Shown: positions 653-14,170 of the stretch, piece by piece | Numbering within the stretch: position 1 is the stretch's first letter | How the letters are laid out: each line of letters opens with the position of its first letter | UHGV virus genome: UHGV-0058267 | Source: a virus | Direction: 5' to 3' (one strand) | DNA: 15,180 nt | Translations under genes and position numbers: made by a program | The notes under the pieces: model-generated | The model's input: only the letters and a program-made list of their open reading frames with translations | The model's database searches: none | What the model was told of the DNA's origin: nothing

Positions 653-994
653 ATGGCAATTAATGGCGCTGCGGCGACTGTTCCATTAAGCCCCGGTGAA
701 CGCCTGAATGGACTTAATCACATTGCGGAGCTAAGGGCGAAAGTTTTTGGCCTGAATATTGAGTCAGAGCTTGAGCGGTTTATTAAAGATATGCGTGATC
801 CACGGGATATCAATAACGAACAAAATAAACGGGCACTGGCTGCTATATTCTTTATGGCAAAAATTCCAGCTGAACGTCATAGCATCAGCATTAATGAGCT
901 GACCACTGACGAAAAGCGGGAGCTGATTAAAGCAATGAATCATTTTCGTGCAGTGGTGAGCTTATTTCCCAGACGGCTAACCATGCCGAATTAA
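653..994 (+). CDS. Conserved hypothetical P2/186 early-operon protein
   Basis: 113-aa ORF with ATG at 653 preceded by GGGGATATGAATT. Its composition is typical of coding sequence, and it occupies the position of the orf81/CP8x genes. Confidence 0.6.
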   Translation: MAINGAAATVPLSPGERLNGLNHIAELRAKVFGLNIESELERFIKDMRDPRDINNEQNKRALAAIFFMAKIPAERHSISINELTTDEKRELIKAMNHFRAVVSLFPRRLTMPN

Positions 995-1061
995 CCAACT
1001 AATGAAATTAATGGCGTAAACCCGCCGGGCATCCCTTTATCTAAATTCAGGAGAATTGATT

Positions 1062-1295
1062 ATGCGTAATATTGAAACCCTCACGACTAAAACCGGACCG
1101 GATGATGCAGGGCTTAATATTTTACTGACAGAGGCTCGTCTGGAAGAACGCCGGGCAAGGGCTGAAGCAATGGCAGCTCGCCTTGATAGTCTGGCGTGTC
1201 ATATTACATCCCGCCAGCTAAACCACGTCGAAGCGGCAGAACTGCTGCGTGTGACTGCTGAAGCAATCCAGAACGAAGCGCAGGAGATCCACTAA
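1062..1295 (+). CDS. Small helical early protein (P2 orf82 / DUF2732-like)
   Basis: ATG at 1062 lies 9 nt after GGAG (1049-1052). The track start at 1056 is a TTG only 3 nt from the RBS. The stop overlaps the next start (TAATG at 1293-1297). Confidence 0.6.
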   Translation: MRNIETLTTKTGPDDAGLNILLTEARLEERRARAEAMAARLDSLACHITSRQLNHVEAAELLRVTAEAIQNEAQEIH

Positions 1296-1522
1296 TGGCT
1301 GATGCAATGGATCTCGTACAGCAGCGCGTTGAAGAAGAACGCCAGCGCCATATCCGTGCTGCCCGTGCCAAAACGCCGGGCGTGTCCCGCGTGCTTTGCA
1401 TTGAGTGTGAAGCGCCAATTCCGCCAGCACGCCGCCGCGCCATTCCAGGTGTGCAGCTTTGCATTACCTGTCAGGAAATCGCAGAACTGAAAGGCAAACA
1501 TTACAACGGAGGTGCTGTATGA
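1295..1522 (+). CDS. TraR/DksA-family C4 zinc-finger protein (P2 orf83-like)
   Basis: Contains CIECEAPIP...N...CITCQ, a four-cysteine finger with the family spacing. 75 aa. Translationally coupled on both sides (TAATG upstream, ATGA downstream). Confidence 0.85.
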   Translation: MADAMDLVQQRVEEERQRHIRAARAKTPGVSRVLCIECEAPIPPARRRAIPGVQLCITCQEIAELKGKHYNGGAV

Positions 1523-2376
1523 GCACCATCCTGAAATGGGCGGGAAATAAAACGGCCATTATGGCAGAACTGAAAAAATACCTTCCTGCTGGCCCGCGAC
1601 TGGTTGAACCTTTCGCGGGTTCCTGTGCTGTGATGATGGAGACGGATTACCCCAGCTATTTGGTTGCGGATATTAATCCTGATTTAATCAACCTCTATAA
1701 AAAGGTTGCCGCTGATTGTGAATCGTTTATATCTCGCGCCAGAGTTTTATTTGAGAACGCAAACAGGGAGATGGCTTATTACAACATAAGGCAGGAGTTT
1801 AATTACTCAACTGAAATTACTGATTTCATGAAAGCAGTATATTTCCTGTATCTCAATCGTCACGGTTACCGTGGTTTATGTCGCTATAACAAGAGCGGGC
1901 ATTTCAACATTCCCTACGGTAATTATAAAAATCCGTATTTCCCTGAAAAAGAAATTCGTGCATTTGCAGAAAAAGCCCAGCGGGCAACATTTATCTGCGC
2001 CAGCTTCGATGAAACGCTGGCAATGTTGCACGCGGGAGATGTGGTGTATTGCGATCCGCCGTATGACGGTACGTTTTCCGGCTATCACACTGATGGTTTC
2101 ACTGAAGATGACCAGTATCACCTGGCATCCGTTCTTGAACATCGGTCATCAGAAGGACATCCAGTCATTGTTTCTAACAGTGACACATCCCTGATCCGTT
2201 CGCTGTATCGCAATTTTACTCACCACTATATCAAGGTAAAACGCAGCATCGGTGTGGCAGCTGGCGAGGGTAAATCAGCAACAGAAATCATTGCTGTTTC
2301 CGGGCCGTGCTGCTGGATGGGATTTGATTATTCGCGTGGCGTGGATAGTTCTGCCGTGTACGGAGTACGTGTATGA
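1519..2376 (+). CDS. dam: Dam-type DNA N6-adenine methyltransferase (orphan; no partner endonuclease visible)
   Basis: Starts [11 protein letters not shown]. Carries the AdoMet motif EPFAGSCAV and the catalytic DPPY motif ([10 protein letters not shown]). ATG at 1519 overlaps the TraR stop (ATGA). The upstream extension to 1459 lies inside the TraR gene and is discounted. Confidence 0.9.
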
Positions 2377-4787
2377 GTCATGACGATATGAGCAACTCTA
2401 GCGGCTTTAACGAGGCCGCTGCAGCATTTTCATGGAACGGCCCGAAAAAGGCCATTAACCCTTATCTGGACCCGGCGGAAGTTGCGCCGGAGTCTGCACT
2501 TTCAAACCTGATCACTCTGTACGCTGCCGATAATGAGCAGGAACAGCTGCGCCGCGATGCACTGAGTGAGCAGGTCTGGGAGCGTTATTTCTTTAATGAA
2601 TCTCGTGATCCTGTCCAGCGCGAAATGGAGCAGGATAAGCTCATTAGCCGGGCAAAGCTGGCGCATGAACAGCAGCGTTTTAACCCGGACATGGTCATTC
2701 TGGCGGACGTCAGCGCCCAGCCCACCCATATTAGCAAGCAGCTGATGCAACGTATCGAATACTTCAGCAGCCTGGGCAGGCCAAAGGCTTATTCCCGCTA
2801 TTTGCGTGAGACGATTAAGCCATGTCTGGAGCGACTGGATTGTGTACGTGACAGTCAGCTGTCTGCTTCTTTCCGTTTTATGGCAAGCCATCAAGGGATG
2901 GAGGGCCTGCTGATCCTGCCTGAAATGAGTCAGGATCAGGTGAAACGCCTGTCCACCCTGGTAGCTGCGCATATGAGCATGTGCCTTGATGCAGCTTGTG
3001 GCGATTTGTATGCCACCGATGACGTTAAGCCAGAAGAAATCCGCAAGACATGGGAAAAGGTGGCGGCGGAAACCCTGCGTCTGGATGTCATCCCACCTGC
3101 GTTTGAGCAACTCCGTCGGAAAAGAAACCGCCGTAAACCCGTGCCCTATGAACTCATTCCGGGTTCGCTGGCGCGTATGTTGTGCGCCGACTGGTGGTAT
3201 CGGAAATTATGGAAGATGCGTTGCGAATGGCGGGAAGAGCAGTTGCGTGCTGTCTGCCTGGTCAGCAAAAAAGCATCTCCCTATGTCAGCTATGAAGCCG
3301 TGATGCATAAACGTGAGCAGCGCCGTAAGTCGCTGGAGTTTTTCCGTTCTCATGAACTGGTGAACGAAGACGGCGACACGCTGGACATGGAGGATGTGGT
3401 AAACGCCAGCAGCAGCAACCCTGCGCATCGCCGCAATGAGATGATGGCCTGTGTTAAAGGTCTGGAGCTTATCGCGGAAATGCGCGGTGACTGCGCCGTT
3501 TTCTACACTATCACCTGTCCGTCACGTTTCCATTCCACGCTCAACAACGGCAGACCCAACCCGACCTGGACAAATGCGACGGTAAGACAAAGCAGCGATT
3601 ATCTGGTCGGCATGTTTGCTGCATTTCGTAAGGCAATGCACAAAACCGGGTTGCGCTGGTATGGCGTGCGGGTGGCTGAGCCGCACCATGACGGTACTGT
3701 GCACTGGCATCTCATGTGCTTCATGCGTAAAAAAGACCGCCGCGCCATCACTGCATTACTGCGTAAGTTTGCCATCCGTGTAGACCGCGAGGAGCTGGGC
3801 AACAACACGGGGCCACGCTTTAAGTCTGAGCTGATTAACCCGCGCAAAGGAACACCGACAAGCTACATCGCGAAATACATCAGTAAGAACATTGACGGGC
3901 GTGGTCTGGCTGGCGAGATCAGCAAGGAAACGGGTAAATCCCTGCGTGATAACGCCGAATACGTTAATGCCTGGGCGTCTCTGCATCGTGTTCAGCAGTT
4001 CCGCTTCTTTGGTATTCCGGGACGTCAGGCTTACCGTGAACTTCGCTTGCTGGCTGGTCAGGCGGCAAGGCAACAGGGTGACAAAAAAGCAGGTGCGCCG
4101 ATACTGGATGACCCGCGCCTTGATGCCATCCTGGCTGCTGCTGATGCTGGTTGTTTTGCCACCTACATCATGAAGCAGGGCGGCGTACTGGTTCCCCGTA
4201 AATATCACCTTATCAGAACCGCTTATGAAATCAACGAAGAGCCGACCGCCTATGGCGATCACGGCATTCGTATTTATGGCATCTGGTCACCCATTGCAGA
4301 GGGCAAGATCTGCACTCATGCAGTGAAGTGGAAAATGGTTCGTAAGGCCGTTGACGTTCAGGAGGCGGTAGCCGACCAGGGCGCTTGCGCCCCTTGGACT
4401 CGTGGCAATAACTGTCCCCTTGCTGAAAATTTGAACCAACAGGAGAAAGATAAATCAGCAGATGGGGACCCCAGAACGGATATTATCAGCATGGATGACA
4501 AGGAGTTGCACGATTTCCTGCACAGTATGAGCAAAAAAGAGCGCCGGGAACTGGCAGAAAGGCTTCGCCTGGTTAAACCGATACGGCGTAAAGACTACAA
4601 ACAGCGAATTACAGACCATCAGCGACTGCAGCTCGTCTATGAGCTGAAGTCCAGAGGATTTGATGGTAGCGAGAAAGAGGTCGATTTACTCCTTCGCGGC
4701 GGCAGTATTCCGTCAGGAGCAGGCCTGCGTATCTTCTATCGGAACCAGCGTTTGCGGGAAGATGATAAGTGGCGGAACCTGTATTAA
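2373..4787 (+). CDS. A: P2 gpA-type replication initiation endonuclease (HUH rolling-circle nickase)
   Basis: 804 aa. HUH-type metal motif in [17 protein letters not shown], and paired catalytic tyrosines in [10 protein letters not shown] (the YxxxY of gpA). The start overlaps the dam stop (ATGA at 2373-2376). Confidence 0.95.
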
Positions 4788-4879
4788 TTACGCGGGTTAA
4801 CAATTCGTGCTCTAAATAATACCCGGTATATCAGGCTGATGAACGTAAAAAAACGTTTTACATCAGTAAGATTATTGTA

Positions 4880-4914
4880 TACTGTGAATATAAACAGTGG
4901 TTATATATACAGTA
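4880..4914. promoter_or_regulatory. LexA (SOS) operator: one near-consensus box plus an overlapping degenerate second box
   Basis: 4880-4899 reads TACTGTGAATATAAACAGTG, i.e. CTG-N10-CAG with an AT-rich spacer, against the consensus TACTG(TA)5CAGTA. 4895-4914 reads CAGTGGTTATATATACAGTA, i.e. GTG-N10-CAG with one mismatch in the CTG arm. Both lie 27-60 nt upstream of the ATG at 4941. Confidence 0.65.
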
Positions 4915-4940
4915 TTGCGTGTGGTGTCATAGGAGGAAAA

Positions 4941-5129
4941 ATGCAGGACTATTTTTTGGAGTCTTTGAAGCTCCAGCGCATTGATTTTTTTCTTAAGCTT
5001 GTCGCGGCTAGTGAGTGTAGTGATGAAGAGAAGGGGCTGGCTCTGCAGTGGGTTTCTGAATTGACTGATGAACTCATGGCAAAAATCAGAACTCACGAAT
5101 ACAACCGCTCAATGGATGTCATCAGTTGA
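4941..5129 (+). CDS. Small SOS-controlled protein of unknown function; possible antirepressor-type partner of the DinI-like gene
   Basis: 62 aa. ATG at 4941 is preceded by AGGAGGAAAA. The longer track ORF from 4839 would start upstream of the LexA boxes and promoter region, so it is discounted. Confidence 0.5.
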   Translation: MQDYFLESLKLQRIDFFLKLVAASECSDEEKGLALQWVSELTDELMAKIRTHEYNRSMDVIS

Positions 5130-5139
5130 GGTGACTTTT

Positions 5140-5373
5140 ATGCGCATTGAAATAATGATCGATAAAGAGCAGAAGATTAGCCAGTCTACCCTGGACGCCC
5201 TTGAATCCGAGCTTTACCGCAATCTGCGCCCCCTGTATCCCAAAACGGTAATTCGTATCCGAAAAGGTAGCTCTAACGGTGTGGAACTGACCGGACTGCA
5301 ACTGGACGAAGAAAGAAAACAAGTGATGAAAATTATGCAGAAGGTGTGGGAAGACGACAGCTGGCTGCATTAA
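5140..5373 (+). CDS. DinI-family protein (P2 orf91 / 186 SOS-operon type)
   Basis: 77 aa. MRIEIMIDKEQKISQSTLDALESELYRNL...WEDDSWLH has the length, N-terminal MR(I/V)E pattern and acidic Trp-containing C-terminus of DinI. RBS TGAGGTGA at 5127-5134. Confidence 0.85.
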   Translation: MRIEIMIDKEQKISQSTLDALESELYRNLRPLYPKTVIRIRKGSSNGVELTGLQLDEERKQVMKIMQKVWEDDSWLH

Positions 5374-5462
5374 GAAACGTTGCTGGCATCAGTACTTGAT
5401 TCTGAAGCCAGCAAGGTTGAACAACGAGCAGGGCGAGGCGTTAGTGTTATCATCAAAGAATT

Positions 5463-6020
5463 TCACATAAACATCTGGATTTGCTCGTTTTTTAGTTGGT
5501 TGATTTTTTCGCGCAATCTGATCTTTTCATCAGCTTTTTCCAAAGAGGCTGGTGACATGCAGTTAATCAAAGCGTCAAGGTGCTCTGGAGATTTGATAAT
5601 AAAGAACTTTTTGTATTTATTAACAAAAACGACAGAGCATTTTTTACGTTTAAGAAGCTCAATCACGTTACTCAGAGTACCCGTGCTCTTCGTATCCCAA
5701 ACCATTAATCCATAATCGGCTTCTTCTGCCATTTTGAGATCTTTCGCAGTGAAAAACGCGCGAGTGCCGGCTGCATGGCTAGTACTTACTACATGTACAG
5801 GCCATGAGCCAAGATTATTGCGCGGTTTTTCTGAGCTACTGAATACTGTGGCTTTTTCACATCCAAGTTCTAGCAATACGCGTTGAACAGATGAATCAAC
5901 ACCATTGGCATCACCAACTACAATACGAAAACGCGAGTTAACAATTTTTTTCAGACGATCCACGATGAGTGTGTCAAGGTTTTTGATGGTTATTGAACCA
6001 GCAACAAATACCGTAGTCAT
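5463..6020 (-). CDS. DprA/Smf-like (SLOG Rossmann-fold) protein; ShosA-like component
   Basis: Contains VFVAGS...RIVVGDANGVDSSVQ, the GxAxGxD nucleotide-binding signature of DprA/SLOG domains, and a C-terminal coiled-coil tail. ATG at 6020 lies 5 nt after GGAGATAG. The track start at 6032 is a TTG inside the upstream gene. The gene starts 2 nt after the PRTase stop. Confidence 0.7.
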   Translation of the reverse strand: MTTVFVAGSITIKNLDTLIVDRLKKIVNSRFRIVVGDANGVDSSVQRVLLELGCEKATVFSSSEKPRNNLGSWPVHVVSTSHAAGTRAFFTAKDLKMAEEADYGLMVWDTKSTGTLSNVIELLKRKKCSVVFVNKYKKFFIIKSPEHLDALINCMSPASLEKADEKIRLREKINQLKNEQIQMFM

Positions 6021-6022
6021 CA

Positions 6023-6604
6023 CTATCTCCAAGTCAAAGCTGCAACATAAATGCTTCTAACCTTAGTATAATCGTTTAGCACAGCACAAGCAGCCTCCAT
6101 AGATGCGCCTGTATGGTAGAGGTCGTCAATGATAAGGACATTCCAGTTGCCATTATTCTCAATACTGTCATTAACAGAGAACGAATTACCCAGCGCCGTG
6201 ATTTTCTCTTCTTTTGTATTCAGGTTCTTTAGCGAAGCCCCGCCGGGGGCTTTCAACAAGAGGTCATCGAAGCATGGTTTGCCAACTAGTTTGGCTAGTT
6301 CCTGAGCTATTTCGGTCACTGGCTGGCGTGCACGCTGATTAGATGCAGCCATTGGAACGATAAACCCGACATTGCTGAAATGAGGAAAGGCATGCTCTGC
6401 TAGGCATTGGGCTAAAGGCTTAACTTGTGACCAATCGTCACGGTATTTAAGCTGGAAAAGAGATTCGCCTACCTCAGTACGCTCAGTCTCAAACCGCATA
6501 TGTCCCCACTCATCGTAACCAATGGGAATGCTGCGGATGCTGTGTTTATCCATCGCAAGACCTAATTCCCAATTTCCAACAATCTGTTTTATGTTGACTT
6601 TCAT
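6023..6604 (-). CDS. ComF/GntX-like type I phosphoribosyltransferase; ShosT-like component
   Basis: PRPP-binding loop VLIIDDLYHTGASM (aa 156-169, acidic pair D160-D161). 193 aa. It is the first gene of a two-gene minus-strand operon. Confidence 0.8.
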   Translation of the reverse strand: MKVNIKQIVGNWELGLAMDKHSIRSIPIGYDEWGHMRFETERTEVGESLFQLKYRDDWSQVKPLAQCLAEHAFPHFSNVGFIVPMAASNQRARQPVTEIAQELAKLVGKPCFDDLLLKAPGGASLKNLNTKEEKITALGNSFSVNDSIENNGNWNVLIIDDLYHTGASMEAACAVLNDYTKVRSIYVAALTWR

Positions 6605-6875
6605 GGCTCACCGTTTGCTGTGTAAAACACCAAAGACTACCTCTTGTTATATTTGGTGAAAGCGAAAGTTTCATTTTTTGCAGTGGAGATCAAATGTTAC
6701 TCCGTGAACATTTTTAGCATGTGGCCTCGCTACACGGTTTGGCGTAACTACTGCATGTCTATACTGCATGAATCCGCATGATCGTTTAAGGATCGCTCTA
6801 GTTGGGGCCTGCTAGGTATGGCGGGCTTTTGCTTATGTCATGCAGGTGCATGAAAACCACTATATAAAGCGGGCA

Positions 6876-6894
6876 GGCGTGGCGGGGATACGAT
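6876..6894. other. Candidate cos cohesive-end sequence (186-like)
   Basis: GGCGTGGCGGGGATACGAT compared with the 186 cohesive end as I remember it, GGCGTGGCGGGGAAAGCAT: 16 of 19 identical, including the first 13. It lies between gene A and the portal gene, where P2-family cos sits. Confidence 0.55.
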
Positions 6895-6951
6895 TGCGCT
6901 CGCATCCTTTTCGTATTAATCTGATATCAATTTAAAACGAAGAGTTCGCAA

Positions 6952-8055
6952 ATGAAAATTATTTCAATATTTAATAATAAAGGTGGTGTAGGAAAATCCA
7001 CTCTTGGATACCATACTGCGCATGCATTGGCAGAGAAAGGTATTAAAACTTTAATGATTGACCTTGATCCACAGTCGAATCTCACTTTACAGTGTATTTC
7101 TCCTGAGGAGTTAGAAAAGTTATGGCTAGAAGAAGAGCCATTTATTGAGGACTTCCAATCAGCTTTAGAGGAAAGTAAACTTTCGTATCAAGATTTTTTG
7201 AGTAAGCCGAGAAGCATTCATTGCTTATTAAAACCAATAGAAGATGGCGTCTACGAATCTTCTTCACTAAGTTCTGTTTATGAGCTTAATGATAAATTAG
7301 GTATTATTCCAGGTCGTTTAAGTTTGCATAAATATGAGGATAAAATCGCGAAGGGTTGGAGTGATGCCTTCATGGGAGAACCTCAAGCACTGCGACTTAT
7401 TACCAGTATTAGGAACTTATGTCTAGAAGCAGAGGAAAAATTTGGTTATGAAATGGTAATAATAGACACATCTCCTAGTCTCGGTATGCTTAACAGAGTT
7501 ATCATTTCTACATCAACCGGATTTTTTGTCCCATGCATGCCCGATATGTTCTCCACCTTTGGGATTACTAACATAGGAGAGTCATTAAAGAATTGGAAAA
7601 ATCAGTTCGATACCATGTATAAACTTTTGCCTGATAAAAAGAGAAATGTTTTCCCTAAAAACTTCGTTAAGTTTTTAGGTTATACTATTTATAACGCGAA
7701 GAAATATGAAGGCAGAAATGAACTTGATTTAGCGACCGCGCATTACTCATATGTTCAGAAAATTCCCAATGTGATCAAAAAACACATTCCTCAAGAATGT
7801 TATCAAGAGCAAGATCTTGCAGACATTTCACAACCAATTGGTGGAAAATCAGTTATTCACTCGCATAATACTCTTCCTTCTATGTCTCAAAAGTATAGGG
7901 TGCCCATATGGAAAGTTCCTTTCATCCAATCCATGAGCGCAGAAGACAGAGCCACTGTTTCAGGTAATAGACAGACTTTTCTTGACAAGCAGCAGGCATA
8001 TAGTGATTTTGCCGATTCTCTTTTGGCTCGTATTGATAAGATTGGAGAAGAATAG
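6952..8055 (+). CDS. ParA/MinD-family (deviant Walker A) ATPase with a large acidic insertion and a C-terminal extension
   Basis: MKIISIFNNKGGVGKST carries the KGGxGK[ST] motif with signature K10 and K15. Walker A' is LMIDLDPQ and Walker B is YEMVIIDTSPS (D172). At 367 aa it is about 100 aa longer than a minimal ParA. The DNA is very AT-rich. Confidence 0.85.
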   Translation: MKIISIFNNKGGVGKSTLGYHTAHALAEKGIKTLMIDLDPQSNLTLQCISPEELEKLWLEEEPFIEDFQSALEESKLSYQDFLSKPRSIHCLLKPIEDGVYESSSLSSVYELNDKLGIIPGRLSLHKYEDKIAKGWSDAFMGEPQALRLITSIRNLCLEAEEKFGYEMVIIDTSPSLGMLNRVIISTSTGFFVPCMPDMFSTFGITNIGESLKNWKNQFDTMYKLLPDKKRNVFPKNFVKFLGYTIYNAKKYEGRNELDLATAHYSYVQKIPNVIKKHIPQECYQEQDLADISQPIGGKSVIHSHNTLPSMSQKYRVPIWKVPFIQSMSAEDRATVSGNRQTFLDKQQAYSDFADSLLARIDKIGEE

Positions 8056-8057
8056 TT

Positions 8058-8735
8058 ATGGCTCTTAAAGAAAAATATGCGGACATTTATAGGCGTCTTA
8101 AAGATGAGATCGATGCCTATGAATATTTCATGAAGAATATTAAAAATTTTTTCGAGTCAACTAAAGTAAAAGCTCATGTCCATTCACTTCGTTTTAGGTT
8201 GAAAGATATTGATCATCTTTTAGAGAAAATAGAAAGAAAAAACCATGAGGATGATCAGTTACCTGAAGCAGAGCGAAAAGGTCATATCACAGCTGAAAAT
8301 ATTTTTAACCGTATAACGGATATAGCTGGAATAAGAGTATTACACCTTCATTTAAGTCAAATGGAAGATATACATCGTGCAATTATGAGGGCAGTAGATG
8401 AAGGGGAGTATGCGCTTTTTGAAGAGCCAAAGGCATATACTTGGGATCCTGAGTCCAAAGTTTATTTTGAGAGTTTGGGTCTTAAGCCTCATGTAAAACA
8501 AAGTTTTTATACGAGCATTCATTATGTCCTGAAACCTAATAGAGAAGGGAGTGTTACTTGTTGTGAAGTTCAAGTCAGAACTCTTCTTGAGGAGGTTTGG
8601 GGGGAAATTGATCATACAATGAATTATCCTATCCAGCATGTCGATGAGAACTGCAAAGAACAGATAAAAATTCTTGCTAGACTGATTGGCGCTGGAAGTC
8701 ATTTAGCTGATTCAATTATGAAACGCTATCAATGA
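8058..8735 (+). CDS. Small RelA/SpoT-homologue synthetase-domain protein (toxSAS-like nucleotide pyrophosphokinase)
   Basis: All core SAS motifs are present: R47-L-K49-x9-K (FRLKDIDHLLEKIERK), TD88IAGIR, Y151TSIH155 and E170VQVRTLLEEVWGEIDH. 225 aa with no hydrolase or regulatory domains. The start lies 2 nt after the ATPase stop, with GGAGAAG upstream. Confidence 0.85.
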   Translation: MALKEKYADIYRRLKDEIDAYEYFMKNIKNFFESTKVKAHVHSLRFRLKDIDHLLEKIERKNHEDDQLPEAERKGHITAENIFNRITDIAGIRVLHLHLSQMEDIHRAIMRAVDEGEYALFEEPKAYTWDPESKVYFESLGLKPHVKQSFYTSIHYVLKPNREGSVTCCEVQVRTLLEEVWGEIDHTMNYPIQHVDENCKEQIKILARLIGAGSHLADSIMKRYQ

Positions 8736-8740
8736 AGAAC

Positions 8741-8761
8741 AGGCAGGAATCATACCTGCCT
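8741..8761. terminator. Hairpin between convergent genes; probable bidirectional terminator
   Basis: AGGCAGG-aatcata-CCTGCCT: a 7-bp perfect stem with a 7-nt loop, flanked by A/T-rich sequence. It lies 6 nt after the RSH stop and 6 nt before the portal-remnant stop. Confidence 0.6.
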
Positions 8762-8766
8762 TAATG

Positions 8767-9141
8767 TTAAATAAGTTTGTAGTCTTCAAAGTTTATTATC
8801 GGCTCATCTAACCATTTGTTAATCTCCTCAATTCTCTTTTGAAGAGGTTTAAGTTCGTTCCTAACAAAAACCATACTAGCCTTCTCCACATCCCCAAACC
8901 CCCCAACATTATTAGGCATAATCCCCATCATTTGCGGCGGCACGCGGTGCGCAGCCATCATGTCATCGCGGCTGACATTTTTGATATTCAGAAACTCATC
9001 CTTCGCCGCCACCTCTGACAACGGGATAATCTGAAGCCCGTCCTTTTTGCCGTTAGGCGAGTACATAAATAGGTTGCGGAAGTTACCCAGGGCGGCGGAG
9101 CGATGAGTTCTAACGGGATCGTGGTTGATGCGCATCAGCAT
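8767..9141 (-). pseudogene. Q: 3' fragment (about 124 codons) of the portal gene Q; the N-terminal two thirds are deleted
   Basis: ...SRDDMMAAHRVPPQMMGIMPNNVGGFGDVEKASMVFVRNELKPLQKRIEEINKWL... matches the conserved C-terminal region of P2 gpQ / PBSX-family portals, which are about 340 aa in P2 from memory. Upstream of 9141 the DNA encodes V/W on the other strand. Confidence 0.8.
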
Positions 9142-9186
9142 ACTGGCGTCCTGAAAGGCGGCGATACAACCGGAGGCCCGGTATGA
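9139..9186 (+). pseudogene. V: Last ~15 codons of the baseplate spike gene V (remnant)
   Basis: The frame ending at TGA 9184-9186 reads ...HTGVLKGGDTTGGPV*. It overlaps the W start as ATGA, as V/W do in P2-family phages. Nothing resembling the rest of V lies upstream. Confidence 0.4.
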
Positions 9187-9542
9187 CGCTTTATAGCGGG
9201 ATGAACAATACCAGCGGTAAAGCTATTACTGATATTGACCATCTGCGCCAGTCGGTGCGGGACATTCTGCTGACACCGCAGGGTAGCCGTATTGCCCGCC
9301 GGGAATATGGTTCCCTGCTGTCGGCACTGATAGATCAGCCACAAAATCCGGCATTACGCCTGCAGGTCATGTCGGCAGTGTATGTGGCGCTGAGTCGCTG
9401 GGAGCCACGGTTGACGCTGGATTCCATCACCATCAACAGCAATTTTGACGGTTCAATGGTGGTGGAGCTGACCGGGCGGCGGAATAACGGTGTGCCTGTG
9501 TCCCTTTCCGTATCAACAGGAGCAGAGAATGGCAGTGATTGA
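9183..9542 (+). CDS. W: Baseplate wedge protein gpW (GPW/gp25 family)
   Basis: 119 aa. ...DIDHLRQSVRDILLTPQGSRIARREYGSLLSALIDQPQNPAL... is collinear with P2 gpW. RBS GGAGG at 9172-9176. Confidence 0.9.
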   Translation: MTLYSGMNNTSGKAITDIDHLRQSVRDILLTPQGSRIARREYGSLLSALIDQPQNPALRLQVMSAVYVALSRWEPRLTLDSITINSNFDGSMVVELTGRRNNGVPVSLSVSTGAENGSD

Positions 9543-10437: not shown

Positions 10438-11035
10438 TCTGCTGCCACCGGGTTCAACACCACTGGAGCGCCGACTGGCACAAACCTGCAGCGGGATTTC
10501 TGATCTGCAGGTGCCGCTTCGTGACTTGTGGAATCCGGCAACCTGTCCGGTCAGTTTCCTGCCTTATCTCGCCTGGGCTTTCTCTGTGGATCGCTGGGAC
10601 GAGGGCTGGACAGAAAGCGTCAAACGCCAGGTGGTGAAGGATGCTTTTTATATTCATCAGCATAAAGGGACCACCAGTGCCGTGCGGCGGGTGGTGGAGC
10701 CGTTCGGATTCCTGATCCGCATTATTGAGTGGTGGCAGACCGGAGAAACACCGGGCACGTTTCGCCTGGATATTGGCGTGCAGGACCAGGGCATCACTGA
10801 AGATACCTATCTGGAACTTGAGCGGCTGATAAGCGATGCCAAACCATGCAGCCGTCACATGACTGGCATGTCCATCAATCTGCAGACCAGCGGTCCGCAT
10901 TGGGTAGGGGCTGCCAGCTATCTTGGCGAAGAAATCACGATCTATCCGTATATCAACGAAACGATTATTTCCGGTGGCACCGCGCATGAAGGCGGGGCGG
11001 TCCATGTTATTGACACAATGAGAGTGAATCCATGA
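10430..11035 (+). CDS. I: Baseplate / tail-fibre-attachment protein gpI
   Basis: MNSLLPPGSTPLERRLA...FLPYLAWAFSVDRWDEGW... is the P2 gpI family signature. It overlaps J by 8 nt and H by ATGA. Confidence 0.9.
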   Translation: MNSLLPPGSTPLERRLAQTCSGISDLQVPLRDLWNPATCPVSFLPYLAWAFSVDRWDEGWTESVKRQVVKDAFYIHQHKGTTSAVRRVVEPFGFLIRIIEWWQTGETPGTFRLDIGVQDQGITEDTYLELERLISDAKPCSRHMTGMSINLQTSGPHWVGAASYLGEEITIYPYINETIISGGTAHEGGAVHVIDTMRVNP

Positions 11036-12774
11036 GCACAAAATTTTATACCCTGCTGACGGAGATTGGTGCGGCGAAGCTTGCCAGCGCCACTGCACTT
11101 GGTGTGCCGCTTAAAATTACCCATATGGCGGTGGGGGATGGCGGCGGAGCATTGCCGACGCCGGACGCAAAGCAGACTGCACTGGTAAATGAGAAACGCC
11201 GGGCTGCGCTGAATATGCTTTATATCGACCCGCAGAACAGCAGCCAGATTATTGCCGAACAGGTGATCCCTGAAAACGAGGGCGGTTGGTGGATACGTGA
11301 AGTGGGCCTGTTTGATGAGTCAGGGGCATTGATTGCCGTGGGCAACTGCCCGGAAAGCTATAAGCCGCAACTGGCTGAAGGCAGCGGGCGCACCCAGACC
11401 GTGCGTATAGTGCTGATAACCAGCTGCACGGACAATATCACCCTGAAAATCGATCCTGCCGTCGTGCTGGCAACCCGCAAGTATGTGGATGACAAGGCAC
11501 TGGAGCTGAAGGTGTATGTGGATGATCTGATGGCAAAACACCTTGCCGCACCAGATCCGCATTCACAGTACGCGCCAAAAGCCAGCCCGACATTTACCGG
11601 AACCCCCAAAGCGCCAACGCCAGCGGCAGGGAATAATACCACGCAGGTTGCGACCACCGCGTTTGTACAGGCGGCACTGACGGCTCTTATTAATGGTGCG
11701 CCAGCCACGCTGGACACACTGAAAGAAATAGCCGCAGCCATTAACAATGACCCGAAATTCAGCACCACCATTAACAATGCGCTGGCACTGAAAGCGCCGC
11801 TGTCGAGTCCGGCACTTACCGGAACGCCAACAGCACCTACTGCGGCACAGTCGGTCAACAATACACAGATTGCCACCACGGCTTTTGTGAAATCGGCGAT
11901 TGCAGCAATGGTGGGTTCTGCACCTGCGGCACTGGATACACTGAACGAACTGGCGGCGGCGCTGGGGAATGACCCGAACTTTGCCACGACAATGCTTAAT
12001 GCACTGGCAGGTAAACAACCGCTGGACAATACGCTGACTAATTTGAGTGGAAAGGATGTAGCTGGTCTTCTCACATACCTTGGTTTGGGAGAAGCCAGAT
12101 TCTCTGGTCGTTTGTTAAACACGAATATTTTTAAAAGCTCTGGAAAATATATCCCAACACCAGGGACAAAAAAGATAAGGGTCATTGCCTCTGGTGGCGG
12201 TGGCGGCGGCGGTGGGGTTCCTGAAACAACAGAAAATCAGCAGGCAACAGCCGGAGCTGGATTGAGCGGCGCATTTATTGAAGCATTTTTCGAGGTTGAT
12301 AATGATTTCGAAGTCAACGTTATTATCGGTGCTGCAGGTAAAGGGGGGGGAGCCGGAGGAAATTCAGGTAGTGAAGGTGGCACAACTTATTTCGGTTCCA
12401 TGATAACTGCACCAGGTGGTACAGGCGGTGGCGCGGGGGGAGCATCTGCAAACACATCATATATTCAGGGTATTTCATGGGGTGCCAGTCCGACATCGTC
12501 CGGTACAGTACTAAGAGCATTTCGCTGTAGTGCAAAAACACCAGGAGCAATGGTTATCTCTGTTAAAGCTGTAGCAGGTGGTACCGGGGGGGATACACCA
12601 TTAGGTTCAGGCGGTATAGGTGGTGCAAGTTCTTCATCATTCAGCGGACGTGGTGGTGGTAAAGCTGAGGGCTTTGGTGCTGGCGGAGGCGGAGCCTGCG
12701 CACCTGCTGGAAGTGAGGCTCAATCGGGAGGTGACGGTGCCCCGGGAATAGTTATTGTTGAGGAGTATGCCTGA
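11032..12774 (+). CDS. H: Tail fibre protein gpH. The conserved N-terminal and shaft part is currently joined to a glycine-rich C-terminal domain encoded inside the invertible segment.
   Basis: The N-terminus MSTKFYTLLTEIGAAKLA...WWIREVGLFDESGALIAVGN is P2 H-like. It is followed by two fibre repeats. After the crossover site comes ...YIPTPGTKKIRVIASGGGGGGGG...GGDGAPGIVIVEEYA*, a typical glycine-rich fibre-tip domain. Confidence 0.9.
   Translation: MSTKFYTLLTEIGAAKLASATALGVPLKITHMAVGDGGGALPTPDAKQTALVNEKRRAALNMLYIDPQNSSQIIAEQVIPENEGGWWIREVGLFDESGALIAVGNCPESYKPQLAEGSGRTQTVRIVLITSCTDNITLKIDPAVVLATRKYVDDKALELKVYVDDLMAKHLAAPDPHSQYAPKASPTFTGTPKAPTPAAGNNTTQVATTAFVQAALTALINGAPATLDTLKEIAAAINNDPKFSTTINNALALKAPLSSPALTGTPTAPTAAQSVNNTQIATTAFVKSAIAAMVGSAPAALDTLNELAAALGNDPNFATTMLNALAGKQPLDNTLTNLSGKDVAGLLTYLGLGEARFSGRLLNTNIFKSSGKYIPTPGTKKIRVIASGGGGGGGGVPETTENQQATAGAGLSGAFIEAFFEVDNDFEVNVIIGAAGKGGGAGGNSGSEGGTTYFGSMITAPGGTGGGAGGASANTSYIQGISWGASPTSSGTVLRAFRCSAKTPGAMVISVKAVAGGTGGDTPLGSGGIGGASSSSFSGRGGGKAEGFGAGGGGACAPAGSEAQSGGDGAPGIVIVEEYA
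11584..12024 (+). repeat. Two tandem ~73-aa tail-fibre shaft repeats within H
   Basis: Repeat 1 (11584-11802): SPTFTGTPKAPTPAAGNNTTQVATTAFVQAAL..APATLDTLKEIAAAINNDPKFSTTINNALALKAPL. Repeat 2 (11803-12024): SSPALTGTPTAPTAAQSVNNTQIATTAFVKSAI..APAALDTLNELAAALGNDPNFATTMLNALAGKQPL. Confidence 0.85.
12068..12093. promoter_or_regulatory. Left recombination site (hix/gix/cix type) for the serine invertase, inside H
   Basis: TTCTCACATACC-TT-GGTTTGGGAGAA: two 12-bp half-sites around a 2-bp TT core, matching the TTnTCnnAAACC half-site pattern of Hin/Gin/Cin sites. 12080-12100 is a perfect 21-bp inverted repeat of 13516-13536. Confidence 0.85.
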
Positions 12775-13040
12775 TGAGTAATTTTGCTCTGATTGAACAT
12801 GGCGTGGTGAAAAATATTATTATCTGGGATGGAGAGGGTGATTTATTCTCTAATTGCGAAATTATAAATATTGATCATATAGATGCAGGCGTCGGTTGGT
12901 TCTATTCTGACGGAGAGTTTATAGCACCACCGGAACCGGAAATGACTGAATATGATGTTGGTAACATCGACGCGGTGATGGAAGCAGATACCAGCACCGC
13001 GCCGGGGGTTATCTGGCCAGTTCCACCTGAGATGGTTTAA
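12774..13040 (+). CDS. Small protein downstream of the active fibre tip; putative fibre chaperone or assembly factor
   Basis: 88 aa. The ATG overlaps the H stop (TGATG at 12772-12776). MSNFALIEHGVVKNIIIWDG... resembles small ORFs that I recall following glycine-rich fibre genes. No catalytic motif. Confidence 0.5.
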   Translation: MSNFALIEHGVVKNIIIWDGEGDLFSNCEIINIDHIDAGVGWFYSDGEFIAPPEPEMTEYDVGNIDAVMEADTSTAPGVIWPVPPEMV

Positions 13041-13206
13041 TCTCAATCAGAATGGGTTCGCCATTCTCGTTAACAGATATTTCCATTCCTTCAGGGATTT
13101 CAGATGCAGTAAAAAACCAGTTATCTTCTGGTAATTCCACAGCCCCGGTCACGTCATGAAGACCGGGGATTACTTCAGTCAAAGTAACAGGATTAAACAG
13201 GCGCAC
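13009..13206 (-). CDS. Alternative small fibre accessory gene, silent in the present orientation
   Basis: GTG at 13206 lies 7 nt after GGAGAG (minus strand ...cctGGAGAGtttattGTGcgc) and overlaps the stop of the silent fibre cassette by 14 nt. This gives MRLFNPVTLTEV..., 65 aa. The track start at 13296 would overlap the cassette by 104 nt. Confidence 0.4.
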   Translation of the reverse strand: MRLFNPVTLTEVIPGLHDVTGAVELPEDNWFFTASEIPEGMEISVNENGEPILIEIKPSQVELAR

Positions 13207-13548
13207 AATAAACTCTCCAGGAAAAAGCACTTGTTGATGGTCTTCCGTCGTACATCTGGCAGCGGACATAAAAACCTGTATTACTGACCTGGTCATCCAC
13301 GATCATTGAAACGTGAACGTTATTAGGTGTGGCCTCGTAATCTGTTCTTATTCTTTCCGCTATGCTGATAAAACGTGAAAGCTTAGGTAGTGCAATTGGA
13401 TAAACGACTTTAGCCAGCCCATTATCATTGGAACCACCAGTTCCAAATACTTCTATTGCACCATCTGACCAGCGTATCCATGCACCATTGACATTAGCTC
13501 CTCGCTGAATGACATATCTGGCTTCTCCCAAACCAACGTTTAAGAAAA
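13193..13548 (-). CDS. Silent, promoterless alternative tail-fibre C-terminal cassette (gp53-like tip), expressed only after inversion
   Basis: The minus-strand frame reads ...NVGLGEARYVIQRGANVNGAWIRWSDGAIEVFGTGGSNDNGLAKVVYPIALP...RVYCAPV*. GLGEAR is encoded by the shared inverted repeat, so inversion fuses it in frame to H (...TYLGLGEAR). The upstream MMPVSRNLCIF of the track ORF lies outside the segment and is fortuitous. Confidence 0.75.
13523..13548. promoter_or_regulatory. Right recombination site (hix/gix/cix type)
   Basis: TTCTCCCAAACC-AA-CGTTTAAGAAAA. The inner half-site is the exact reverse complement of the inner half of the left site, and the core AA opposes TT on the left, giving an inverted orientation. 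Confidence 0.85.
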
Positions 13549-13603
13549 TGCAGAGATTACGGCTAACTGGCATCATCTCCGGTTTTTATTCAGGGGGATG
13601 ATC

Positions 13604-14170
13604 ATGCTTATTGGCTATGTACGCGTGTCAACAAATGACCAGAACACCGATTTGCAACGTAATGCACTGAACTGCGCGGGATGTGAGCGGATTTTTGAGG
13701 ACAAAATCAGTGGCACTAAGTCCGACAGACCGGGGCTGAAAAAACTGCTCAGGACACTATCGGCAGGAGACACGCTGGTTGTCTGGAAGCTGGACCGGTT
13801 GGGGCGCAGTATGCGGCATCTTGTTACGCTGATAGAAGAGTTGCGCCAGCGTGGCGTGAATTTCCGAAGCCTGACTGACAGTATTGATACCAGTACCCCA
13901 ATGGGCCGTTTCTTTTTTCATGTCATGGGTGCCCTGGCTGAAATGGAACGCGAACTGATAGTTGAACGTACCAGGGCAGGGCTGGCTGCAGCTCGTGTTA
14001 AAGGCAGAGTAGGTGGACGCCGTCCTAAGTTGACCAGCGAACAGTGGGCACAGATTGGGCGTTTACTCGAGGCCGGAGAATCAAGACAGCGTATTGCACT
14101 GATTTTTGATGTAGGCGTTTCTACCATTTATCGAAAATTTCTGGCAAATAAGAGCAATGAATCTCCCTGA
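13604..14170 (+). CDS. Hin/Gin/Cin/Pin-family serine DNA invertase
   Basis: MLIGYVRVSTNDQNTDLQRNAL... (catalytic Ser in VRVST) followed by ...LVVWKLDRLGRSMRHL...FFFHVMGALAEMERELIVERT... and a C-terminal HTH (VSTIYRKF). ATG at 13604 lies 6 nt after AGGGGG. The track start at 13598 abuts the RBS. Confidence 0.92.
   Translation: MLIGYVRVSTNDQNTDLQRNALNCAGCERIFEDKISGTKSDRPGLKKLLRTLSAGDTLVVWKLDRLGRSMRHLVTLIEELRQRGVNFRSLTDSIDTSTPMGRFFFHVMGALAEMERELIVERTRAGLAAARVKGRVGGRRPKLTSEQWAQIGRLLEAGESRQRIALIFDVGVSTIYRKFLANKSNESP

Follow-up and report, generated by a model that had tools for sequence, protein, structure and literature searches.

A ParA-like ATPase coupled to a stand-alone RelA/SpoT-homologue synthetase in a P2-like prophage: a candidate abortive-infection module

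Introduction

RelA/SpoT-homologue (RSH) enzymes that serve as immune effectors are known to be controlled either by small or fused antitoxins, as in toxSAS and CapRel, or by a nucleoid-associated protein (NAP), as in PANGU. PANGU type I is composed of Pag1A, a YejK-like NAP, and Pag1B, a GRel toxSAS of 37.5 kDa with a SYNTH domain and a C-terminal acidic DNA-mimic domain (bioRxiv 10.64898/2026.04.06.716658). Its chromosome-bound sensor, once freed from the degraded nucleoid, licenses the toxSAS, which makes pppGpp; neither gene is toxic alone, the effector is inert by itself, and the system is not a toxin-antitoxin pair (bioRxiv 10.64898/2026.04.06.716658). A ParA/MinD/Soj-like ATPase has also been described in defence, i.e. 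GiPD474 of the Gifsy-1 prophage, a single-gene system whose AAA_31 ATPase has, besides Walker A, a further domain of unknown function (DUF) and gives approximately 5-log protection against T4, FO1 and Alf5 (PMC12724215). Here we describe a locus in the UHGV virus genome UHGV-0058267, a stretch of 15,180 nucleotides (nt) referred to as the window in this report, in which a gene for a ParA-like ATPase is directly followed by a gene for a stand-alone RSH synthetase.

As a unit, the two genes are obligately linked, coupled in translation and horizontally mobile, and they diverge together. We read this unit as a mobile module of two genes that serves in conflict, most likely as an anti-phage system of the abortive-infection type that prophages carry as cargo, and give this reading slightly better than even chances. 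We infer a likely defence role, together with the direction of regulation (the ATPase as activator rather than antitoxin), the trigger and the product. The putative defence role is likely because the pair is mobile, rare and located in a variable cargo slot, and because relatives of the ATPase are tied to other effectors in BREX and Hma loci.

Sequence and structure of the two proteins

Both genes are intact and, as predicted from their sequences, catalytically competent. The features of the pair are as follows, with protein positions in amino acids (aa).

6952-8055, + strand: gene for a 367-aa ATPase of the ParA/Soj fold, class I of a distinct ParA-like clade (Pfam AAA_31, 6.5e-28)
6979-6999, + strand: deviant Walker A motif KGGVGKS, aa 10-16, including the signature lysine K10; invariant in alignments
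7105-7209, + strand: acidic insertion, found in class I only, aa ~52-86, net charge -6 to -8 per 25-aa window
7714-8052, + strand: clade-specific helical segment at the C-terminus, aa ~255-367, extending past the canonical ParA core
8045-8060, + strand: operon junction read from the sequence, with a GGAGAA Shine-Dalgarno inside the 3' end of the ATPase gene, a TAG stop, a 2-nt gap and ATG
8058-8735, + strand: gene for a stand-alone RSH synthetase domain, 225 aa (Pfam RelA_SpoT, 9.6e-17)
8319-8567, + strand: active-site span with D88 (DIAGIR), Y151/S153/H155 and E170 (CEVQVRT), invariant and aligned to RelQ
8652-8720, + strand: invariant C-terminal helix of the RSH, aa 199-221, ...LARLIGAGSHLADSIM, from the alignment

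The ATPase also matches Pfam CbiA (7.7e-13). The first-pass annotation of the window, made from the letters of the sequence, had recognised a deviant-Walker-A ATPase by the motifs KGGVGKS, DLDPQ and IIDTSPS. All three are found, with DLDPQ at aa 37-41 (Walker A' residues D37 and D39) and IIDTSPS at aa 170-176 (Walker B residue D172), and homologue alignments show K10, G11-K15, D37, D39 and D172 to be invariant across both ATPase classes described below. Since the signature lysine and the catalytic aspartates are invariant, the ATP switch is presumably in use; by analogy with ParA/MinD biochemistry, the protein would be expected to dimerise and hydrolyse ATP. The AlphaFold2 (AF2) model of the ATPase, with a predicted local distance difference test (pLDDT) score of 89.8, shows a ParA/Soj fold with approximately 110 extra C-terminal residues, canonical ParA/Soj structures being 243-264 aa long. 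The top Foldseek match is 3PG5 (DIP2308 of C. diphtheriae, 5.8e-14), with Soj/ParA next, and the profile of the ATPase family matches 3PG5 across residues 1-330 (6.5e-32). The C-terminal extension can be aligned in 3PG5, in a SIR2-linked relative (locus L221) and in Orf23 of phage ST160. The protein database holds 2,624 relatives of the ATPase at E <= 1e-10.

Across 29 homologues of the RSH, the residues R47, K49, K57, R60, K61, D88, G91, R93, Y151, S153, H155, E170, Q172, R174, T175 and H186 are invariant, and they superpose on the ATP/Mg site of RelQ (RelQ D72/R77, E139). Both the homologue alignment and the alignment to RelQ thus bear out the earlier statement that every catalytic element of the RSH is kept. 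The statement that the protein carries no additional C-terminal domain also holds, as its 225 aa form a single domain in the AF2 model (pLDDT 86.3). The C-terminal helix is invariant at L206, A207, L209, G213 and H215-M221, and the last ~20 residues (from ~aa 201) have the lowest model confidence (pLDDT ~55-57). By inference, this helix is a candidate protein-protein interface. The protein database contains 1,683 RSH relatives, and the best 120 are all ~214-253 aa long, with named sources mostly in Proteobacteria.

The fold of the RSH is nearest to RelP/RelQ, ahead of CapRel or FaRel2, and the protein scores 42.6 bits against the NCBIfam RelQ equivalog GTPPhKinYjbM, for which the cut-off is 320. 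The RSH family is slightly acidic (median pI 6.2), with a local +6 segment at aa 25-49 that overlaps the ATP site. Published work has shown that tRNA-modifying toxSAS need a basic surface patch that guides the tRNA acceptor stem, and that this patch is charge-reversed in RelP/RelQ. Because the RSH family is acidic and tRNA-modifying toxSAS need a basic surface, a nucleotide seems the more likely acceptor of the predicted enzyme than tRNA, an argument that is not decisive.

Coupling of the two genes and distribution of the pair

A scan of one genome per species, covering 185,579 species, identified 234 confirmed RSH relatives, and the counts of loci given here rest on the best 80 of the 234. 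An ATPase gene lies immediately upstream of the RSH gene and on the same strand in 77 of the 80 loci. Their stop/start junctions mostly fall between -4 and +5 nt, which points to translational coupling. In the window both genes are on the + strand and lie 2 nt apart, as had been annotated. Loci are denoted by L numbers, and the three exceptions are L037, a truncated RSH remnant, L050, and L080, which has no evident explanation. In L050, the open reading frame (ORF) just upstream of the RSH gene resembles a transposase, as read from its sequence.

Approximately 30 viral contigs in IMG/VR carry the pair, and there the RSH follows every class I ATPase that has downstream sequence. The co-occurrence of the two genes therefore extends beyond the original locus and is reciprocal in viral contigs. 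Pairwise-distance matrices of the ATPase and the RSH are correlated, with r = 0.885 for class I (n = 32) and 0.708 for class II (n = 34) (Mantel p <= 0.001).

The pair is patchily distributed, being found in ~0.13% of species. Its hosts include Proteobacteria, Poribacteria, Acidobacteriota, Bacteroidota, Nitrospirota, Actinomycetota, Myxococcota and a metagenome-assembled genome (MAG) of Lachnospiraceae. In complete E. coli genomes the pair is rare (7 of 5,426) and always occupies the P2 cos-Q slot (from the DinI-like gene or cos to the portal gene Q), and it is also found in Klebsiella and Citrobacter. Among 72,556 plasmids the pair is essentially missing, with a single weak match (45% identity) on a 1.7-Mb chromid. 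In GenBank phage genomes the class I ATPase was not found, and the RSH matches were distant only.

Distant relatives of the RSH (31-35% identity; H31-H54) occur on ~181-kb plasmids of Bacillus anthracis, which we take to be pXO1, and on other plasmids of the Bacillus cereus group. Another distant relative is found on a 5-kb plasmid of Paracoccus marcusii.

Two architectures of the pair

The pair loci fall into two classes. Class I, to which the window belongs, comprises 33 loci with an ATPase of ~366 aa that is 44-73% identical to the ATPase of the window; class II comprises 44 loci with an ATPase of ~335 aa that is 24-31% identical. A third gene lies directly upstream of the ATPase gene in 41 of the 44 class II loci and in none of the 33 class I loci, and two of the three class II loci without it end at contig edges. 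The third protein is conserved, ~190 aa long and has a basic C-terminal tail (e.g. L043:6338-6931, among class II loci L033-L082). Its core motif is SPKEFL..TDVERVACLAYYLTHYR..PHFKTLD..LNTEAAQPKFSN. No relative of it was found in Pfam (including ParB_N), PADLOC or PDB, apart from a spurious match to a designed repeat protein.

The acidic insertion is conserved in 29 class I sequences, in which W58, E61 and D67 are invariant, and it is missing from class II, SIR2-linked and stand-alone relatives of the ATPase. The insertion noted in the first-pass annotation is a real feature and is conserved in the close family; it is no general property of the pair, as class II lacks it and pairs with an RSH anyway. 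The accompanying suggestion that the insertion masks a basic face of the toxin is not supported, given the slightly acidic RSH and the class II pairs without an insertion. Among the pair loci, the acidic insertion and the third gene are mutually exclusive, which suggests that they play equivalent or compensating roles. This mutual exclusivity also provides a handle for dissecting the mechanism.

It is possible in principle that the ATPase is a plain segregation ParA that partitions or positions DNA and that the RSH is an unrelated passenger. The ParA/Soj fold and the deviant Walker A motif are genuine, PHROG and NCBI label the ATPase as a ParA-like partition protein, and the small class II protein with its basic tail could be an adaptor. 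However, neither the window nor any of the 33 class I loci contains a ParB or other centromere-binding gene, a ParB/parS partner having been named as the mark of plain partitioning. The NCBIfam partition, MinD and BcsQ models all score far under their cut-offs for the ATPase and match mainly its N-terminal P-loop region, and the third protein of class II has no ParB_N or other Pfam match. P2-type prophages integrate and so need no partition system, and the pair is essentially missing from plasmids. Reciprocal coupling to the RSH, with overlapping stop and start codons and co-divergence, also argues against a passenger. This explanation is largely refuted and very improbable, and a partition system was rejected on the grounds of no ParB, no plasmids and reciprocal RSH coupling.

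Partner swapping in the wider ATPase clade

Full-length relatives of the ATPase (25-30% identity, C-terminal domain included) associate with SIR2 or Schlafen-like proteins. A SIR2 gene lies directly downstream of such relatives in 17 of 80 metagenome loci (L239-L262) and in two viral loci. In this ParA-SIR2 module (e.g. L221:8001-9876 and L223:7388-9314), identity of the ATPase to that of the window is 25-28% along the full length. The SIR2_2 partner has ~290 aa and resembles ThsA/LmuA, and the stop codon of one gene usually overlaps or almost touches the start codon of the next. The ParA-SIR2 module is not among the systems that PADLOC recognises, and class II and SIR2-linked relatives have no real match there.

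A Schlafen/AlbA_2 protein with HATPase_c_4 (~400 aa) is encoded directly upstream of ATPase relatives in 38 of 80 metagenome loci (L266-L317), and its gene mostly overlaps the start of the ATPase-relative gene by 4 nt. In L205:6755-8981, the Schlafen-ParA module lies between a 1,084-aa ORF and PglZ, with a 681-aa ORF downstream, and is read as part of a BREX-like locus. In the Hma-like loci L287 and L311, the module adjoins an HmaB-like DUF1156 methylase.

Stand-alone members of the clade exist in prophages. The P22-like Salmonella phage ST160 (L237, 2995-4068) encodes Orf23, a stand-alone protein of 357 aa that is 25% identical to the window ATPase (E = 6e-22). Its gene comes directly after the c2 repressor gene and a DUF3024 gene, a position that is read as a rexAB-like slot by comparison with lambda.

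The coupling of ATPase relatives to SIR2 and Schlafen-like effector domains in BREX and Hma loci fits an anti-phage role. This partner swapping on the ATPase clade is the strongest indirect argument for a conflict or defence role of the pair. A tentative extension, which we hold to be possible and clearly short of even chances, is that the window ATPase belongs to a large and hitherto unrecognised clade of ParA/Soj proteins, repurposed from DNA positioning into infection sensors, which serves as a common defence chassis with interchangeable effectors. Such a chassis might be defined by an FNNKGGVGK[ST]T...DxDxQxN...FLGY core with a C-terminal helical domain, with 3PG5 as a member. Its effector might be a RelP/Q-like alarmone synthetase, a SIR2 NADase or a Schlafen/AlbA_2 protein, or it might have none. 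For the pair, the extension would imply that a nucleoid-associated, ATP-bound ATPase reports phage damage to, or occupation of, the chromosome and turns on alarmone synthesis, by which infection would be aborted. The acidic insertion of class I and the third protein of class II might then be alternative built-in regulators of the switch.

As a separate observation, a Pseudomonas prophage contig (L203:4223-8063) carries a stand-alone ParA-like gene beside a convergent two-gene unit, one product of which (335 aa) has an N-terminal sequence that by eye looks YejK-like. If that product is YejK-like, the unit would be PANGU-like and the region a small defence island. The ParA-like protein of L203, with GGVGKT at residues 29-34 from one possible start, was considered as GiPD474 itself; this was ruled out, as an exact look-up showed a Pseudomonas protein.

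The pair as prophage cargo

The window derives from a P2-like prophage, with genes for a Dam methylase, replication endonuclease A, a DinI-like protein, baseplate proteins gpW/J/I, a tail fibre, an invertase and a sheath protein. The ATPase-RSH cassette occupies exactly the slot from cos (6876-6894) to the stop codon of the portal gene (8767), and two further features delimit it.

6876-6894, + strand: cos-like 19-mer GGCGTGGCGGGGATACGAT, the left boundary of the cargo slot
8741-8761, no strand assigned: hairpin with a 7-bp G+C-rich stem, between the convergent RSH and portal genes

The 19-mer at 6876-6894 matches a cos sequence of the P2/186 type with 3 mismatches (chance expectation 0.01). 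Other E. coli P2-like prophages align to the window only as far as ~6905, just past the cos-like 19-mer. The earlier placement of the cassette between cos and the portal gene, in the accessory slot of P2, is matched by the same placement in the seven complete E. coli genomes. Windowed GC content also agrees with the AT-richness that had been counted by hand, at 0.33-0.38 over ~7000-8800 versus 0.55-0.60 for the backbone from 9000. The hairpin had been taken as the cassette's own terminator. It is real (-11.5 kcal/mol, z = -3.2), but its U-run on the + strand is weak and a terminator scan flagged 8741-8761 as terminator-like on the - strand only.

On the other side of cos, two overlapping genes encode a DprA-like protein and a ComF/phosphoribosyltransferase (PRTase) protein (5463-6032 and 6023-6604, both on the - strand), and the PRTase of this gene pair matches ShosT in PADLOC (1.3e-8). 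The 5463-6604 pair corresponds to a DprA+PRTase system of the P2 hotspot that protects against T7 and lambda (Rousset et al.). In the E. coli P2-like prophages L234, L235 and L236, the cos-portal slot has the same DprA/PRTase flank and holds other cargo, i.e. a frameshifted AIPR (abortive infection) gene, two hypothetical proteins (272 and 248 aa) or a 778-aa AAA ATPase.

The surroundings of the pair elsewhere also point towards conflict systems. It is flanked by AbiGi and MazE/PIN in Desulfotignum, and a resolvase remnant adjoins it in Burkholderia multivorans. Among its 146 immediate neighbours in the different species are integrases, transposases, ResIII helicases, type IV restriction enzymes, DrmD, BrxH, PbeA and PDC-S candidates, besides many housekeeping genes.

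Direction of regulation and biological role

The catalytic residues of the RSH are complete in five loci that lack an intact ATPase, the ATPase gene being missing in L050 and L080, frameshifted in L064 and L068 and split in L083. The last of these is from a cultured isolate, Desulfotignum phosphitoxidans (L083:7145-9023), in which the ATPase gene is interrupted at ~codon 44. The inserted element measures 1.88 kb, shows a 7-bp target duplication and contains two ORFs (193 and 133 aa), neither of which matches Pfam. The RSH of L083 is identical to that of intact metagenomic copies (e.g. L084). Because an intact RSH outlasts the loss of the ATPase, and a lethal toxin would be unlikely to survive in this way, an activating role of the ATPase is favoured over that of an antitoxin.

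These loci bear directly on a toxin-antitoxin explanation, in which the RSH would be constitutively toxic, the ATPase would be an antitoxin that sequesters it (type II) or reverses its effect, and infection or loss of the element would free the toxin. Such an arrangement would account for the bicistronic overlapping layout with the putative antitoxin first, as in many toxSAS loci, and for the strict co-occurrence and co-divergence of the two genes; MazE/PIN neighbours are present in Desulfotignum, and the NetFlax network includes ATPase antitoxins. Against it, beside the five independent loci, a fully conserved ATPase of 41.7 kDa that is predicted to be competent for hydrolysis far exceeds the needs of sequestration. 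A clade whose members have SIR2 partners, Schlafen-like partners or none fits a chassis for sensing or regulation better. The RSH is nearest to the non-toxic RelP/RelQ, and PANGU shows that a large partner does not by itself make a toxSAS part of a toxin-antitoxin system. We therefore regard a toxin-antitoxin pair as unlikely. The proposal of the first-pass annotation that the ATPase is an ATP-gated antitoxin is accordingly not upheld, since an intact RSH persists without an intact ATPase and the closest analogue, PANGU, is licensed by an activator.

A second alternative is that the pair is a physiological stress or dormancy module, in which an ATPase-gated alarmone synthetase tunes growth, persistence or the choice between lysogeny and induction; it would have no part in immunity and simply travel on mobile elements. 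The top structural and sequence matches of the RSH are the housekeeping enzymes RelP/RelQ, and NCBI names its close homologues '(p)ppGpp synthetase'. Its conservation across phyla is high, and local synteny is conserved in Poribacteria. However, a physiological enzyme would not readily account for the very patchy occurrence of the pair in E. coli and across species, its presence in viral contigs, or a prophage slot that is elsewhere occupied by Abi-type genes. The score of the RSH lies far below the RelQ equivalog cut-off, and the ATPase clade is repeatedly found with SIR2 and Schlafen-like effectors, embedded in BREX/Hma loci. We judge a physiological module to be rather improbable.

Several observations nevertheless weigh against an abortive-infection role. 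Many loci have housekeeping neighbours, e.g. the conserved ADH genes in Poribacteria, and the defence-island signal around the pair is suggestive only. Conservation of the RSH is unusually high (57-84% identity across proteobacterial classes), which could fit a physiological enzyme equally well. The loci with a disrupted ATPase and an intact RSH could also be explained by polar loss of expression or by assembly errors. A scan found no sigma-70 consensus promoter between cos and the ATG of the ATPase gene, and the PADLOC-DB release used for the comparison with named systems dates from 2023.

Proposed mechanism

ParA-type ATPases bind nucleoid DNA as ATP dimers. In the abortive-infection system that we favour, the effector would be the RSH, a pyrophosphokinase of the RelP/RelQ type whose default state is inactive. 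The ParA-like ATPase would be its obligate partner; as a switch that dimerises in dependence on ATP, it would sense a sign of infection and thereupon license the RSH. This sign may be a phage protein or the loss or alteration of nucleoid DNA. The activated RSH would move pyrophosphate from ATP to a nucleotide acceptor to give (p)ppGpp or (pp)pApp, by which NTP pools would be drained; the CCA end of tRNA is a less likely acceptor. Growth of the infected cell would thus halt ahead of phage release.

Other features of the window

The cassette (window 6600-8800) shares 100% identity with E. coli CFSAN061762, and over the longer alignment, 653-9088, identity is 98.1%. Relative to CFSAN061762, the window is without 8.6 kb, from inside the portal gene Q through the end of gene V. 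The deletion junction at 9082-9088 is a 7-bp microhomology, and a 124-aa portal fragment is fused to the region just upstream of gpW (8767-9204). Because these 8.6 kb are missing, the prophage is considered defective, with its cargo kept.

The tail-fibre gene H (region 11032-14170) encodes a C-terminal domain rich in glycine (Pfam Gly_rich_2). Small ORFs in both orientations come next, and then a serine invertase at 13598-14170 (Resolvase and HTH_7). The gene H/invertase region is probably an invertible host-range switch.

Significance and comparison with known systems

If the proposed role is correct, the pair would represent a third mode of control for RSH immune effectors, i.e. a switch built on a ParA-type ATPase. 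Among the spatial organisers of bacterial cells, ParA/MinD ATPases are the best studied; they would then also be a defence scaffold that recurs with exchangeable effectors (RSH, SIR2, Schlafen-like), and the orphan structure 3PG5 would gain a functional context. The reading would cover thousands of genes that now bear the label "ParA family protein" or "(p)ppGpp synthetase", in prophages of E. coli and Klebsiella and in many environmental phyla. It would also add a new candidate to the cos-proximal hotspot of P2, one overlooked by current defence-finding databases.

No named defence system matches the pair, as had been anticipated: against PADLOC-DB v2.0.0 the hidden Markov models (HMMs) give no significant full-length match, the ATPase having only a P-loop match to PDC-M28B (28 bits, residues 4-39), beside which the window pair has only a 21-bit match to PDC-S33. 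Full-text literature searches, which included the key toxSAS, NetFlax and P2-hotspot papers and searches for 3PG5/DIP2308, found no description of the pair. A ParA partner is unmentioned in Jimmy et al. 2020 and in the NetFlax paper. The earlier claim that the architecture is new thus stands as far as the pair itself is concerned; it is tempered by PANGU and GiPD474, which are recent precedents.

Several families share one of the two proteins with the pair. RelP and RelQ (PDB 6EWZ, 5DEC) are nearest in fold to the RSH, which differs from them in scoring far below the equivalog cut-off, in being located on mobile elements and obligately coupled to an ATPase, and in its distinct invariant C-terminal helix. 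ParA, Soj, MinD and 3PG5 share with the ATPase the same fold and the deviant Walker A, Walker A' and Walker B motifs. 3PG5 (DIP2308), a structural-genomics protein without an assigned function, is a full-length homologue. In contrast to ParA/Soj/MinD, the window ATPase has no ParB/parS, carries its C-terminal extension and acidic insertion, and is coupled to enzymatic effectors. Unlike ParABS systems, the pair is chromosomal or in integrated prophages and not on plasmids. GiPD474, as described, is similar in being a prophage-borne ATPase of the AAA_31/ParA-like type that has a Walker A motif and an extra domain at its C-terminus, and stand-alone members of the window ATPase clade likewise occur in prophages. 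GiPD474 differs in acting on its own, whereas an RSH always accompanies the window ATPase.

CapRel is reportedly a proven phage sensor. The toxSAS systems and CapRel resemble the pair in their RSH synthetase fold with a full catalytic set and in being bicistronic and prophage-borne (Jimmy et al. 2020; Kurata et al. 2021; Zhang et al. 2022). The pair has no small type II antitoxin, small alarmone hydrolase (SAH), Panacea/PAD1 or fused pseudo-ZBD, and the partner is instead the 367-aa ATPase. The RSH also differs from them in being net acidic and nearer to RelP/RelQ in fold.

Of the characterised systems, PANGU type I is the closest analogue. Both are two-gene operons of a separate, larger partner and a stand-alone RSH effector, and the RSH described here appears to be tolerated without its partner, as read from the sequences of the disrupted loci. 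Binding to nucleoid DNA is an established normal property of ParA-type ATPases, as it is of NAPs. In place of an NA37/YejK protein, the pair has a ParA/Soj-fold ATPase (AAA_31) as partner, and the RSH lacks the C-terminal acidic DNA-mimic domain of Pag1B, an acidic segment being found in the ATPase instead. Taken together, these comparisons suggest that the pair resembles an RSH-based abortive-infection system while departing from the defining features of each named family, and that what is new is the class of the partner.

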